Below are positions 12,726 to 21,532 of a DNA stretch of 64,000 nucleotides, piece by piece; the stretch's first letter is position 1, and every line of letters begins with the position of its first letter. The notes beneath the pieces are model-generated. The model had not been told where the DNA came from and searched no databases. It was given only the letters and a program-made list of their open reading frames with translations. The stretch is from Escherichia coli (GTDB taxonomy: Bacteria; Pseudomonadota; Gammaproteobacteria; Enterobacterales; Enterobacteriaceae), in NCBI RefSeq assembly GCF_050920415.1, contig NZ_CP169309.1, one strand, 5' to 3'. Made by a program: the position numbers and the translations under genes.

Positions 12726-14111
12726 ATGAATATTCCACAGCTCACCGCCCTGTGTCTGCGTTATCAGGGAGTCTTGCTGGATGCCAGCGAAGAGGTGGTT
12801 CATGTTGCGGTGGTCGATGCCCCTTCGCATGAGCTACTGGACGCATTGCATTTCGCTACCACCAAACGTATTGAGATCACCTGCTGGACGCGCCAACAAA
12901 TGGAAGGTCACGCCAGTCGCACCCAACAGACATTGCCCGTAGCTATTCATGAGAAGCATCAGCCCAAAGCAGAGTTGCTGACTCGAACGTTACAATCTGC
13001 GCTGGAACAACGCGCGTCTGATATTCATATCGAACCAGCGGACAATGCCTACCGCATCCGCTTGCGTATCGACGGTGTATTGCATCCTTTACCGGATGTT
13101 TTACCGGATGCCGGAGTCGCATTAACCGCCAGATTAAAAGTGCTGGGCAACCTGGATATTGCGGAACATCGCCTGCCGCAGGACGGGCAATTCACTGTCG
13201 AACTGGCAGGAAACGCCGTCTCATTTCGTATTGCGACCTTACCATGCCAGGGTGGTGAAAAGGTGGTATTAAGGTTGTTACAGCAGGTGAGCCAGGCACT
13301 GGATATCAACACGCTGGGGATGCAGCCGTTACAACTGGCGGACTTTGCTCATGCCTTGCAACAACCACAGGGACTGGTGCTGGTAACTGGCCCTACAGGC
13401 AGCGGCAAAACGGTCACGCTTTATAGTGCCCTGCAAACGCTGAATACCGCTGACATTAATATTTGTAGCGTCGAAGATCCGGTTGAGATCCCCATAGCCG
13501 GACTAAACCAGACGCAAATCCATCCGCGTGCCGGTCTTACCTTTCAGGGCGTTTTGCGTGCGTTATTGCGCCAGGACCCTGACGTCATCATGATCGGAGA
13601 GATCCGCGATGGCGAAACAGCAGAGATCGCTATTAAAGCGGCGCAAACCGGTCACCTGGAGTTGTCTACCCTACACACCAATTCCACCACTGAAACGCTG
13701 GTACGTTTACAGCAAATGGGAGTCGCCCGCTGGATGCTCTCATCGGCGCTTACGCTGGTAATAGCCCAGCGTCTGGTACGTAAACTTTGCCCACATTGTC
13801 GCCTGCAGCAAGGGGAGCCCATCCATATTCCAGACAATGTATGGCCGTCGCCGCTGCCCCGCTGGCAAGCACCCGGTTGTGTACATTGCTACCACGGTTT
13901 TTATGGTCGCACGGCCTTATTTGAAGTTCTGCCCATAACACCGGTCATACGTCAGCTTATTTCCGCTAATACCGACGTTGAATCGCTGGAAACGCACGCC
14001 CGACAGGCGGGTATGCGAACGCTTTTTGAAAACGGCTGCCTGGCGGTGGAGCAAGGCTTAACCACCTTTGAAGAGTTAATCCGCGTATTGGGAATGCCGT
14101 ATGGCGAGTAA
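12726..14111 (+). CDS. hofB: Type IV pilus assembly ATPase (GspE/PilB family)
   Basis: 461 aa ORF with Walker A GPTGSGKT and Cys tetrad (CPHC..CVHC); between ppdD and hofC. Confidence 0.95.
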   Translation: MNIPQLTALCLRYQGVLLDASEEVVHVAVVDAPSHELLDALHFATTKRIEITCWTRQQMEGHASRTQQTLPVAIHEKHQPKAELLTRTLQSALEQRASDIHIEPADNAYRIRLRIDGVLHPLPDVLPDAGVALTARLKVLGNLDIAEHRLPQDGQFTVELAGNAVSFRIATLPCQGGEKVVLRLLQQVSQALDINTLGMQPLQLADFAHALQQPQGLVLVTGPTGSGKTVTLYSALQTLNTADINICSVEDPVEIPIAGLNQTQIHPRAGLTFQGVLRALLRQDPDVIMIGEIRDGETAEIAIKAAQTGHLELSTLHTNSTTETLVRLQQMGVARWMLSSALTLVIAQRLVRKLCPHCRLQQGEPIHIPDNVWPSPLPRWQAPGCVHCYHGFYGRTALFEVLPITPVIRQLISANTDVESLETHARQAGMRTLFENGCLAVEQGLTTFEELIRVLGMPYGE

Positions 14112-15303
14112 GCAACTCTGGCGCTGGCGTGGCATAACCGGCGACGGCAATGCGCAAGATGGGATGCTATGGGCAGAGAGCCGTGCTTTGCTGCTCATAG
14201 CACTACAGCAACAGATGGTTACCCCACTTAGCCTGAAGCGAATCGCCATCAATTCTGCGCAGTGGCGAGGAGATAAAAGCGCGGAAGTCATTCATCAACT
14301 GGCGACGCTACTCAAAGCCGGGTTAACGCTTTCTGAAGGGCTGGCACTGCTGGCGGAACAGCATCCCAGTAAGCAATGGCAAGCGTTGCTGCAATCGCTG
14401 GCGCACGATCTCGAACAGGGCATTGCTTTTTCCAATGCCTTATTACCCTGGTCAGAGGTATTTCCGCCGCTCTATCAGGCAATGATCCGCACGGGGGAAT
14501 TGACTGGTAAGTTAGATGAATGTTGCTTTGAACTTGCTCGACAGCAAAAAGCCCAACGTCAGTTAGCCGATAAAGTGAAATCAGCGTTGCGTTATCCCAT
14601 CATCATTTTAGCGATGGCAATCATGGTGGTTGTGGCAATGCTGCATTTTGTACTGCCGGAGTTTGCTGCTATCTACAAGACCTTTAACACCCCATTACCG
14701 GCGCTAACGCAGGGGATCATGACGCTGGCAGACTTTAGTGGCGAATGGGGCTGGCTGCTGCTGTTGTTCGGCTTACTGCTGGCAATAGCCAATAAGTTGC
14801 TGGTGCGCCGCCCGACCTGGCTCATCGTGAGGCAAAAATCACTGTTACGCATCCCAATTATGGGTTCACTGATGCGAGGGCAAAAACTCACGCAGATCTT
14901 TACGATTCTGGCGCTGACACAAAGTGCAGGCATTACTTTTTTACAGGGCGTAGAGAGCGTCAGAGCAACAATGCGCTGTCAGTACTGGGAGCAACTTCTG
15001 ACACAAATCCAGCACGATATCAGTAACGGTCATCCTATCTGGCTGGCGCTAAAAAATGCCGGTGAGTTTAGCCCGCTCTGTTTGCAATTAGTGAGAACAG
15101 GAGAGGCATCCGGTTCGCTGGATCTCATGTTAGACAACCTCGCCCGTCATCATCGGGATAACACCATGGCGCTGGCGGATAACCTTGCAGCCTTGCTCGA
15201 ACCGGTGTTGCTGGTCATAACGGGAGGAATTATCGGTACGCTAGTGGTGGCAATGTATTTGCCAATTTTCCATTTAGGCGATGCGATGAGTGGGATGGGA
15301 TAA
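14101..15303 (+). CDS. hofC: Type IV pilus platform protein (GspF/PilC family)
   Basis: 400 aa polytopic ORF; start overlaps hofB stop by 11 nt. Confidence 0.94.
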   Translation: MASKQLWRWRGITGDGNAQDGMLWAESRALLLIALQQQMVTPLSLKRIAINSAQWRGDKSAEVIHQLATLLKAGLTLSEGLALLAEQHPSKQWQALLQSLAHDLEQGIAFSNALLPWSEVFPPLYQAMIRTGELTGKLDECCFELARQQKAQRQLADKVKSALRYPIIILAMAIMVVVAMLHFVLPEFAAIYKTFNTPLPALTQGIMTLADFSGEWGWLLLLFGLLLAIANKLLVRRPTWLIVRQKSLLRIPIMGSLMRGQKLTQIFTILALTQSAGITFLQGVESVRATMRCQYWEQLLTQIQHDISNGHPIWLALKNAGEFSPLCLQLVRTGEASGSLDLMLDNLARHHRDNTMALADNLAALLEPVLLVITGGIIGTLVVAMYLPIFHLGDAMSGMG

Positions 15304-18185: not shown

Positions 18186-18365
18186 TGATGCGACGCTGGC
18201 CTGATAAGACGCGGGCAGCGTCGCATCAGGCATCGTGTGCAAATGTCGGATGCGGCGGGAACGCCTTATCCGACCTGCAAGATCTTTTATATCAACGTGT
18301 TAAAAAATTGTAGGCCTGATAAGACGCGCCAGCGTCGCATCGGGCATCCAGTGTAAATGTTGGAT
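18186..18365. repeat. REP/BIME palindromic repeat cluster (yacG-mutT intergenic)
   Basis: Several copies of GCCTGATAAGACGCG..CGTCGCATCAGGC and GCCGGATGCGGCG-type palindromes. Confidence 0.85.
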
Positions 18366-18377
18366 GCCTTAACCGAT

Positions 18378-18767
18378 CTACAGACACTTAAGCTTCGCAA
18401 TTACCGGTTCATTGGCTGGCGGAAAATCATCGGCATTCAGACCAACCAGCGACATCCACTCACCGGGTTGCCCTTCTTTACCCCACGGCTCCCCTTCCCA
18501 GCTTTCGACCAGCCAGAACCACAGAGTTATATGCCTGTCCGGGAATTCATATTCCAGTTTTTCAAATAGCGAAAAATGTTGTGGGGTAATCCCGACTTCT
18601 TCCTGAAGTTCACGCACCACCGCCTGTTCCGGCGTTTCGCCCATTTCAATTTTACCGCCAGGAAACTCCAGTTTATTCGCCATGTGCGCATCTGCGGCGC
18701 GACGGGTTATAAAGATTTCATTGTTCTCGTTGCGAATAATACCTACCGCAATTTGCAGCTTTTTCAT
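18378..18767 (-). CDS. mutT: 8-oxo-dGTP diphosphatase (Nudix)
   Basis: 129 aa ORF; Nudix box GGKIEMGETPEQAVVRELQEEVGI. Confidence 0.96.
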   Translation of the reverse strand: MKKLQIAVGIIRNENNEIFITRRAADAHMANKLEFPGGKIEMGETPEQAVVRELQEEVGITPQHFSLFEKLEYEFPDRHITLWFWLVESWEGEPWGKEGQPGEWMSLVGLNADDFPPANEPVIAKLKCL

Positions 18768-18781
18768 TGTCTTAAACCTAT

Positions 18782-18809
18782 AAAAAAGGCGCAGAATCCT
18801 GCGCCTTTT
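18782..18809 (-). terminator. Intrinsic terminator after secA (bidirectional-looking)
   Basis: aaaaaa-GGCGCAG-aatcc-TGCGCC-tttt; 18 bp downstream of the secA stop and about 15 bp upstream of the mutT start. Confidence 0.6.
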
Positions 18810-18826
18810 ACTTCAACTGTTAGCTT

Positions 18827-21532
18827 TTATTGCAGGCGACCGTGGCACTGCTTGTATTTTTTACCAGAACCGCACGGGCAAGGATCATTACGTCCAACTT
18901 TGCGTTCACCAGTTTGTGCCGCCAGTGCAGCTGCGGCTGCAGAGTCGTCATCCTGATGGCTAAGCTGCTGCATTTGCGCTAAACGCTCGGCTTCCATACG
19001 ACGCTGTTGTTCCAGCTCCTCAACCTCTTCAGGCATACGTACCTGAACTTTGCTCAGCGTGCTGATAACTTCATATTTCAACGACTCCAGCATCGCTGCA
19101 AACATGGAGAACGATTCACGTTTGTATTCCTGCTTCGGATCTTTCTGTGCATAGCCACGCAGGTGGATACCTTGACGCAGATAATCCATCGCCGCCAGGT
19201 GCTCTTTCCACAGGGAGTCAAGCGTTTGCAGCATGACGCCTTTCTCGAAGTGACGCATCATCTCAGCGCCAACCACTTCTTCTTTACGCTGATACACTTC
19301 GATGGACTGCGCCAGAATACGCTCACGCAGCGTCTCTTCATGCAGTTCTGGCTCTTTGTCCAGCCACTCGGCAATCGGCAAATCGAGGTCGAAATCGTTC
19401 TTCAGACGTTCCTGCAGCCCCGGAATATCCCACATTTCTTCCAGCGACTGCGGCGGAATGTAGGCATCGATGGTCGCTTTGAACACATCTTCACGAATGC
19501 TGTTGATGGTATCGCTCACATCGCTGACATCCAGCAGTTCATTACGCTGGGAGTAAATGGCGCGACGCTGATCGTTAGCCACGTCATCATATTCCAGCAG
19601 TTGCTTACGAATATCGAAGTTACGGCTTTCAACTTTACGCTGAGCGTTGGCAATCGCTTTGGTCACCCACGGGTGCTCGATGGCTTCGCCTGGTTTCATA
19701 CCCAGTTTACGCATCATGCCGGAAACACGGTCAGAAGCAAAAATACGCATCAGCGCATCTTCCATCGACAGGTAGAAACGGGAAGAACCGGCATCCCCCT
19801 GGCGCCCAGAACGACCGCGTAGCTGGTTATCGATACGACGAGATTCGTGACGTTCTGTACCGATGATATGCAGACCACCTGCAGCCAGTACCGCATCGTG
19901 ACGCACCTGCCAGTCGGCTTTGATTTTTTCAATTTGCTCTGCGGTCGGATTTTCCAGCGCGGCAACTTCTGCCTGCCAGCTACCACCGAGCACAATATCT
20001 GTACCACGACCCGCCATGTTAGTCGCGATAGTCACCGCCGCGGGATAACCCGCTTGTGCAACAATCGCTGCTTCGTTAGCGTGGAATTTGGCGTTCAGAA
20101 CGTTGTGTTTGATACCGGCTTTGGTCAGCTCGTTTGACACCAATTCCGATTTTTCGATGGAGATAGTACCCACCAGCACCGGCTGGCCTTTCGCAGTACG
20201 TTCTTTGATATCTTCAATGATCGCCTGAATTTTTTCCGCTTCAGTCATGTAGACCAGGTCCGGCAGATCTTTACGAATCATTGGACGGTTGGTCGGAACA
20301 ACGACGGTATCCAGCTTATAGATGGAGCTGAATTCGAAAGCTTCGGTATCAGCAGTACCGGTCATCCCCGCCAGTTTTTCATACAGACGGAAGTAGTTCT
20401 GGAAGGTGATCGACGCCAGCGTCTGGTTTTCGTTCTGGATCTGTACACCTTCTTTCGCTTCCACTGCCTGATGCAGGCCATCGGACCAACGACGTCCCTG
20501 CATGGTACGACCGGTGTGTTCGTCAACGATGATAACTTCACCATCTTTAACGATGTAGTCGACGTCTCGGGTAAACAGCGCATGAGCGCGCAGCGCCGCC
20601 GTTACGTGGTGCATCAGCATGATGTTGGCCGGAGAGTACAGAGACTCCCCTTCATCCATGATGCCTTCTTTCACCAGCAGTTCTTCAATCAGCACCAGAC
20701 CACGTTCGGTCAGGTTCACCTGGCGAGATTTTTCGTCCACCGAGAAGTGGCCTTCGCCCTGGAAGGTTTCGGAGTCTTCTTTTTCCTGACGGATCAGGTG
20801 CGGAATAATTTTATTCACGCGTTTATACATTTCCGAGCTGTCTTCTGCCGGGCCGGAAATGATCAGCGGTGTACGCGCTTCATCGATCAGGATGGAGTCC
20901 ACTTCGTCCACCAGCGCATAGTGCAGTTTACGCTGTACACGTTCTTCAGGGCTGAACGCCATGTTATCGCGCAGGTAGTCAAAGCCGTATTCGTTGTTCG
21001 TACCGTAAGTGATGTCAGCTGCGTAAGCTTCACGCTTCGCCGGTGCTGGCATGCCCGGCAGGTTGATACCGACAGTCAGGCCAAGGAATTCAAACAGCGG
21101 ACGGTTGTTTTCGGCGTCACGTTGCGCCAGGTAGTCGTTGACGGTAACAACGTGTACGCCCTTACCGGTTAATGCGTTCAGGTAAGCAGGCAGCGTTGCG
21201 GTCAGGGTTTTACCTTCACCGGTACGCATTTCCGCGATGCAGCGTTCGTTAAGAACCATACCGCCGAGTAACTGAACGTCGAAGTGACGCATACCAAAGA
21301 CGCGCTTACTTGCCTCACGCACCACAGCGAAAGCTTCTGGGATCAGATTTTCCAGCACTTCGCCTTTTTCCAGACGTGCACGAAACTCTGCGGTTTTCCC
21401 TTTCAGTTCTTCGTCGGAGAGTTTTTCCATCTCCGGTTCCATGGCATTGATGATGTTGACGACTTTGCGCATCCGGCGCAGGGTGCGATCGTTACGACTA
21501 CCGAAAACTTTAGTTAATAATTTGATTAGCAT
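18827..21532 (-). CDS. secA: Preprotein translocase ATPase SecA
   Basis: 901 aa ORF ([23 protein letters not shown]..), C-terminal zinc motif [14 protein letters not shown]. Confidence 0.98.

Follow-up and report, generated by a model that had tools for sequence, protein, structure and literature searches.

The hairpin between secA and mutT of Escherichia coli: a catalogued Rho-independent terminator that probably limits mutT expression to read-through

Partial intrinsic terminators are known from within operons of E. coli, where they are found in the arrangements rpsU-(T1)-dnaG-rpoD and rplL-(attenuator)-rpoBC, the latter as part of rplKAJL-rpoBC. In this study, we revisited a hairpin that lies between secA and mutT. 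MutT removes 8-oxo-dGTP and its loss turns E. coli into a strong A:T-to-C:G mutator; how the MutT dose is set therefore bears on the control of the mutation rate. An element with the same location has been described in Salmonella as the Rfam family STnc40, which has in common with our locus the position between secA and mutT, the hairpin and the U-tract. In the passages of Smirnov et al. (2017) that deal with STnc40, it is reported among the ProQ-associated small RNAs of Salmonella and referred to as 'a hypothetical mutT attenuator' (PMC5391140). Those passages cite Pfeiffer (2007) and Naville & Gautheret (2010) for STnc40, the second of these being a screen for premature terminators (PMC5391140); the main text of Naville & Gautheret (2010) makes no mention of STnc40. 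The terminator is already known, as Rfam contains it under the name STnc40 and a possible role as mutT attenuator has been considered for it, and in this respect no new biology is added here. What our analysis adds is the point that a promoter inside secA would still need read-through of this terminator, together with a comparison of 75 hairpin-bearing loci and of more distant relatives.

The window, by which we mean the whole stretch of 64,000 nt of E. coli DNA analysed here (contig NZ_CP169309.1), carries secA and mutT one behind the other on the minus strand (Table 1). Read along this strand, the spacer between them is AAGCTAACAGTTGAAGT-AAAA-GGCGCAG-GATT-CTGCGCC-TTTTTT-ATAGGTTTAAGACA-ATG, in which ATAGGTTTAAGACA represents the 14 nt between the T-run and the mutT ATG at 18767. 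The window is 100% identical over 801 nt to E. coli strain MFDS1022581, and its positions were converted to those of K-12 according to K-12 = 129811 - window. The secA-mutT region was found in 5,424 of the 5,426 complete E. coli genomes. When the 801-nt stretch 18300-19100 was compared with these genomes, identity of at least 99% was seen in only one of the 5,426 and identity of 90-95% in 2,080; the 101 nt around the terminator, on the other hand, are at least 99% identical in 2,584 complete genomes. The divergence therefore sits in mutT and/or in the REP region. The MutT protein of the window presumably differs from that of K-12 at two residues. The convergent yacG/mutT spacer contains REP/BIME-type repeats (window 18198-18275 and 18313-18378) and gives Rfam naRNA4 (RF02564) matches of 73.5 bits, which is above the threshold, and of 39 bits; because of these repeats the 801-nt query matched a median of seven places per E. 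coli genome. Elsewhere in the window, hofC forms an ORF of 400 aa at 14101-15303, although the reference record of 100% identity (L001 7798-8801) annotates this gene as a pseudogene that is interrupted by a stop.

Table 1. Positions of the features of the secA-mutT locus in the window
Feature	Position	Strand	Basis or remark
secA CDS, 901 aa	21532..18827	minus	Stop codon 18829-18827; ORF list, and annotated likewise in the E. coli record of 100% identity
Plausible weak promoter inside secA	19483-19449	minus	-35 TTCAAA 19483-19478, -10 TACATT 19462-19457, published TSS 19449
Rfam RF02057 STnc40 match	18851-18782	minus	Last 25 nt of secA, 3' UTR, hairpin and U6
secA-mutT intergenic spacer, 59 nt	18826..18768	minus	Same length in most Escherichia loci
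A-run AAAA, lengthens the stem by A-U pairs	18809-18806	minus	RNA fold
5' stem arm GGCGCAG	18805-18799	minus	Sequence and fold
Tetraloop GATT, without sequence constraint	18798-18795	minus	Loop variety across hairpin-bearing loci
3' stem arm CTGCGCC	18794-18788	minus	Sequence and fold
U-tract TTTTTT	18787-18782	minus	Sequence; K-12 RNA 3' ends map here
Shine-Dalgarno-like AGG of mutT	18779-18777	minus	9 nt before ATG, 2 nt past the U-tract
mutT CDS, 129 aa, 8-oxo-dGTP diphosphatase	18767..18378	minus	ORF list and annotation of the same reference record

The original prediction, made from the letters of the window, had described a hairpin flanked by an A-run and a T-run at 18782-18809, which is exactly where we find it, and had placed this terminator about 15 bp upstream of the mutT start, in good agreement with the length of ATAGGTTTAAGACA. 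It had further stated that the hairpin takes up nearly all of the spacer, which is an overestimate, as it covers, with both runs included, 28 of the 59 nt and thus about half. RNA folding gives a stem of 11 pairs, seven in a G-C-rich part and four of the A-U type, with a 4-nt loop and a centroid energy of -16.7 kcal/mol. In its 221-nt context, which is not more structured than shuffled sequences (z = -0.08), the hairpin is the sole element on which the minimum-energy and the centroid fold agree. We defined a strict terminator motif as a perfect 7-bp stem with at least five G-C pairs and a loop of 3-8 nt followed by T6; the 64-kb window contains about five such sites and none of 30 dinucleotide shuffles contains any, and the exact palindrome GGCGCAG-N4-CTGCGCC is unique in the window, with 0.05 occurrences expected by chance. 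A consensus terminator scan of the window did not list the secA-mutT hairpin, presumably because the A-U extension of the stem leaves only four T residues within the tail window; our search with the strict motif did pick it up. The site combines a G+C-rich stem-loop, an adjoining U-run, a stop codon upstream on the same strand and 3' ends formed in vivo, as expected for an intrinsic terminator. Features of a bidirectional terminator were not found: the opposite strand offers only TTTT followed by AC, and secA and mutT are co-oriented. For this region, the excerpted TRS tables list minus-strand termini only at K-12 positions 111466-111549 (PMC10687069). The secA-mutT hairpin is a Rho-independent terminator of secA, of an ordinary and already catalogued kind.

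That the hairpin terminates secA transcripts, as had been proposed, is supported by published RNA 3' ends, which come from E. coli K-12 and not from the strain of the window. Between the hairpin and the first mutT codons, the K-12 sequence given in the TRS table does not differ from that of the window. According to the excerpts of this table, an RNA 3' terminus is located on the K-12 plus strand at 111025-111036 (window 18786-18775), that is on and just past the U-tract, with 111030 or 111033 (window 18781 and 18778) as the dominant positions (PMC10687069). The excerpts give a TRS signal of 0.946 in LB RNAtag-seq (rank 546, adjusted p 1e-77 to 1e-108) and of 0.98-1.0 in other RNAtag-seq and term-seq datasets, on a scale on which 1 corresponds to zero read starts in the downstream window and which is a local 3'-end statistic rather than a termination efficiency (PMC10687069). 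Measured in this way, the secA signal is as strong as the excerpted signals of the operon-end terminators of thrC (0.93), talB (0.94) and lpxC (0.88-0.98), and also of guaC; in addition, the terminus is classed there as 'alternative primary in TU', meaning that secA is annotated as not being the last gene of its TU (PMC10687069). The curated Term-seq list of Adams (2021), which is short, does not contain this 3' end, and the SMRT-Cappable-seq supplements hold nothing on the secA-mutT site. Antisense to mutT, Adams (2021) did report a region of Rho-dependent termination, located at K-12 111226(-), which corresponds to about 18585 on the plus strand of the window, and transcripts coming out of yacG are seemingly stopped by Rho inside mutT.

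We then compared the locus across relatives at one genome per species, which gave 80 loci, 73 with secA upstream of mutT, four with another gene upstream and three that were too short. The hairpin is kept in all 73 other Enterobacteriaceae loci in which secA lies upstream of mutT. The counts that follow are based on 75 hairpin-bearing loci including the window, except for the distances, which were tallied over 76 sequences as the window's strain appears twice. The G-C stem starts 21 nt past the secA stop codon in the window and 18-23 nt past it in 72 of the 76 sequences, and the gap between the T-run and the mutT ATG measures 13-14 nt in 62 of them and never exceeds 23 nt. In about 56 of the 75 loci, the ATG has a GGA, GGAG or AGG motif at a distance of 7-10 nt. 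Each stem arm is invariant in 74 loci, the exceptions being GGCGCGG (L033) and CTGCGCT (L009), whereas the loop occurs in 17 different sequences. In the T-run, T1-T4 and T6 are invariant and the fifth position is T in 71 loci; the four bases that follow are A in 65, T in 73, G in 58 and G in 63, giving AT(G/A)G. Upstream of the stem, A is found at position -1 in 72 loci, at -2 in 73, at -3 in 63 and at -4 in 51, and positions farther out vary freely.

Since the half-sites are invariant around a free centre and no compensatory pair change in the stem was seen across these approximately 75 genomes, the palindrome could be read as a DNA site for a dimeric regulator of mutT or secA, with its likeness to a terminator being secondary. 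We consider this hardly credible. The conservation is asymmetric, as it takes in T6 and AT(G/A)G on the 3' side of the stem but no more than AA on its 5' side, and both stem variants can form G-U wobble pairs only in secA-sense RNA. Furthermore, RNA 3' ends map onto the U-tract in the excerpted TRS tables (PMC10687069), the palindrome occurs just once in the window, and distant relatives swap the sequence and keep a hairpin with a U-tract. These relatives, whose MutT proteins are 43-60% identical and most of which have secA directly upstream, carry after secA unrelated stems such as GAGGCTCAA/TTGAGCCTC, CGGCGG/CCGCCG and GCCCGCC/GGCGGGT, with the ATG about 20-100 nt away. A structure that is retained while its sequence is replaced at depth fits a function at the RNA level.

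The spacer itself has been enlarged in Salmonella (151 nt), C. sedlakii (101 nt) and a Buttiauxella MAG (233 nt), in each case upstream of the mutT-proximal hairpin, and the hairpin thus stays attached to the mutT ribosome-binding site. In the Buttiauxella MAG (L061), two copies of the hairpin flank an insert of approximately 165 nt, as if duplicated by the insertion. In E. coli 510016 (L091 3069-3780), IS200C has inserted exactly after the terminator T-run, at a point corresponding to window 18782/18781, which pushes mutT about 0.7 kb away; the right end of the IS200 element provides a hairpin of its own about 24 nt before the ATG. In Atlantibacter (L060, L067 and L077) and in one Citrobacter freundii strain (L024), a mutT homologue, the product of which is 77-80% identical, is located 12 nt behind another gene and has no hairpin. 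The 238-aa ORF ahead of it is taken by us to be yggN, and a MutY-like gene as well as what appear to be trmB and yggL lie nearby. Behind this yggN-like ORF, the 12-nt gap leaves no room for a promoter. One distant lineage likewise has no hairpin in a secA-mutT spacer of only 17 nt. Both the relocation in Atlantibacter to 12 nt behind another gene and the 17-nt spacer count in favour of a mutT gene without a promoter of its own, and these two natural variants, together with the IS200 insertion behind the U-tract, could be used as ready-made experiments.

With regard to where mutT transcription starts, the original prediction had held that there is no room for a promoter past the terminator, and had named a mutT start between the hairpin and the ATG as the contrary sign to look for. 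Its view stands: besides the short distance of 14 nt, no sigma-70-like site overlaps the spacer in either of two scans (a promoter scan and a PWM scan), and the K-12 table of Kim (2012), which reflects a single study with a single set of conditions and may have missed weak or condition-specific starts, lists no TSS between the hairpin and the mutT ATG (PMC3415461). Over the final 120 nt of secA, the PWM score reaches no more than 4.4, and scores of at least 7 arise four times per kb per strand by chance. A promoter lying over the hairpin and spacer was considered and dismissed: the TATAGG after the T-run has GGCGCA at the place of the -35 element, and the best local PWM scores are 4.1-4.4. A promoter within the final 250 nt of secA was likewise dismissed as unsupported, since this part shows no constraint on synonymous sites and the TG of an extended -10 candidate is not conserved. 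Farther upstream, synonymous variability dips at 19075-19048, where the best PWM hit, of 7.4, is also located; this score is at chance level, no TSS has been reported there and the codons are preferred ones, and we regard the dip as noise. The lowest synonymous variability in the last 500 secA codons was found at window 20236-20263 on the minus strand (z = -1.08). This dip adjoins an RpoF (sigma-28) SELEX peak reported at K-12 109556 (window 20255), near which a search for a sigma-28 motif gave only a weak match, TAAAGATC-N11-GTCTACAT.

The sole TSS assigned to mutT in the table of Kim (2012) is K-12 110362, which corresponds to window 19449 inside secA, 682 nt upstream of the gene, and it was represented by 16 reads as compared with 323 for the secM start (PMC3415461). 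The TSS fits a -10 TACATT and a -35 TTCAAA with a PWM score of 6.9, and the final T of this -10 hexamer comes from an Ile codon for which 62 of 66 species use ATT, a stronger bias than in any other of 30 conserved Ile columns; a weak promoter at 19449-19483 is therefore plausible. Should most of the mutT mRNA originate here rather than at the secM promoter, mutT would in part be uncoupled from the secretion-controlled expression of secM-secA. We think this rather unlikely, given the small share of reads and given that the -10 element is dictated by conserved Tyr/His-Ile codons, so that its conservation is mostly driven by the protein; in addition, no Klebsiella TSS for the orthologous position is present in the TSS tables examined. 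Transcripts from this promoter would also meet the terminator 640 nt later. As the terminator sits between any such promoter and mutT, a promoter inside secA needs read-through just as the secM promoter does, and we infer that read-through is the source of mutT mRNA in both cases. Of the original proposal, according to which mutT is expressed either by read-through or from a promoter embedded in secA, the dependence on upstream transcription holds, as indicated by the class 'alternative primary in TU' and by the TSS inside secA; the either/or does not.

The identity of the hairpin with STnc40 rests on a match to RF02057 ('STnc40, Salmonella enterica sRNA') that scores 81.8 bits against a gathering score of 45 (E 1e-14) and covers the model over its full length (1-70). 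At the S. Typhimurium locus (L082), the match is at 1419-1486 (68 nt, 59.8 bits), between the end of secA at 1349 and the start of mutT at 1501. In E. coli, the 5' 25 nt of the match belong to the secA coding sequence, and in Salmonella the 5' part lies in a REP-like insert; as these parts are not homologous, only the terminator is truly common to STnc40 of the two species. The label 'sRNA gene' may thus be generous for what could be the 3' end of an mRNA. Alternatively, STnc40 could represent the 5' leader of a mutT-specific transcript made from a promoter in the last approximately 60 nt of secA, with the hairpin as its attenuator. The Rfam model does begin at 18851, a weak extended -10-like TGgTAAAAA at 18866-18858 would set the start at this 5' edge, and the phrase quoted above from the STnc40 passages of Smirnov et al. 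(2017) points in the same direction (PMC5391140). It nevertheless seems to us a very unlikely reading: on the 5' side of STnc40 in E. coli, the best promoter score is the 4.4 mentioned above, far below chance level, and the table of Kim (2012) holds no TSS (PMC3415461). The TG is limited to about 19 of 75 species, and synonymous sites over the final 250 nt of secA are, as noted, without constraint. In view of the insert in Salmonella, the 5' boundary of STnc40 is not conserved either, and such a transcript would still have to be read through the very same hairpin.

A different question is whether the released RNA has a function of its own. The near-invariance of the stem exceeds what a generic terminator needs, which hints at an additional constraint that the proposed role as a valve for mutT does not explain; binding of ProQ or a precisely tuned efficiency are possible reasons. 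ProQ ligands typically have an A-run that pairs with the U-tract so that a short tail stays single-stranded, and A-U pairs of this kind are seen in the fold of the hairpin. The STnc40 fragment might accordingly be a ProQ-bound sRNA acting in trans, or a docking site through which ProQ stabilizes secA mRNA, and this function, and not the dosage of mutT, would then account for the extreme conservation. It would also agree with the listing of STnc40 as ProQ-associated in Salmonella in the relevant passages of Smirnov et al. (2017) (PMC5391140). Against this, STnc40 has no known target or phenotype and no defined 5' end, and the RNA outside the hairpin is not conserved except as secA coding sequence. 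We regard a function of this type as unlikely, and it would in any case be compatible with a terminator that works as a valve and not exclusive of it.

We consider it very probable that the hairpin acts as the Rho-independent terminator of secM-secA and that mutT, having no promoter of its own, is fed by read-through across it, so that the terminator works as a fixed valve. A secM-secA-mutT transcription unit is listed in EcoCyc. RNA polymerase would release most secM-secA transcripts at the U-tract, at about 18782-18778 of the window, and the released 3' fragment would be the RNA that has been catalogued as STnc40. Translation of mutT would take place only on the minority of transcripts that read through, on which the ribosome-binding site begins 2 nt past the U-tract, and these transcripts would start at the secM promoter and perhaps also at the weak promoter inside secA. 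In this way, the terminator would serve as a fixed valve within the operon, holding MutT at a much lower level than SecA. Both read-through as the source of mutT mRNA and the setting of dosage as its purpose are what we infer from these data taken together. As the stop is nearly complete, with signals that reach 1.0, one may ask whether enough MutT could come from read-through alone.

The valve is probably constitutive and not switchable, as there is no competing antiterminator structure: on the sense strand, no upstream complement of either stem arm was found (no upstream CTGCGCC complement). Nor is there a leader peptide ORF or an aptamer upstream of the terminator, with just 17 nt between the secA stop and the A-run and with no other Rfam family in the spacer. 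A regulated attenuator or riboswitch was therefore rejected, as antiterminator, leader ORF and aptamer are all missing and only the terminator hairpin is stable in the 221-nt fold; the absence of an antiterminator in particular argues against a switch at the secA-mutT terminator. It could still be imagined that read-through is tuned by a trans-acting factor or by the conditions of growth, thereby adjusting the MutT dosage and the A:T-to-C:G mutation rate, or that STnc40 acts in trans on mRNAs of DNA metabolism. This idea is prompted by the near-total invariance of the stem and the reported association with ProQ, and we give it only a slight chance of being correct. If either regulated read-through or a function of STnc40 in trans were true, this would provide a link to the control of the mutation rate. 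As it appears at present, the MutT dose seems to be set in a plain manner, by a strong and highly conserved terminator that separates a gene with an abundant and essential product from a passenger lacking its own promoter.

Among known systems, STnc40 resembles RaiZ, which derives from the 3' end of raiA, in that it shares the terminator of an mRNA, and its association with ProQ has been reported in the very paper on RaiZ, in the passages already referred to (PMC5391140). Unlike RaiZ, it has no known trans target, seed or processing site, and its conserved part is the terminator alone. As with the trpL and thrL attenuators and with riboswitches, a terminator is found immediately ahead of the coding sequence that would be regulated. 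The secA-mutT locus differs from these in having no leader ORF, no antiterminator pairing and no aptamer. The arrangement compares better with rpsU-dnaG-rpoD and rplL-rpoBC, from which it differs in that the ribosome-binding site of the distal gene lies only 2 nt from the U-tract, which is unusually tight. As is the case in those two operons, a hairpin followed by a U-tract between co-transcribed genes would here lower the expression of a promoter-poor distal gene, and an abundant proximal product, SecA, is paired with a scarce distal one, MutT.
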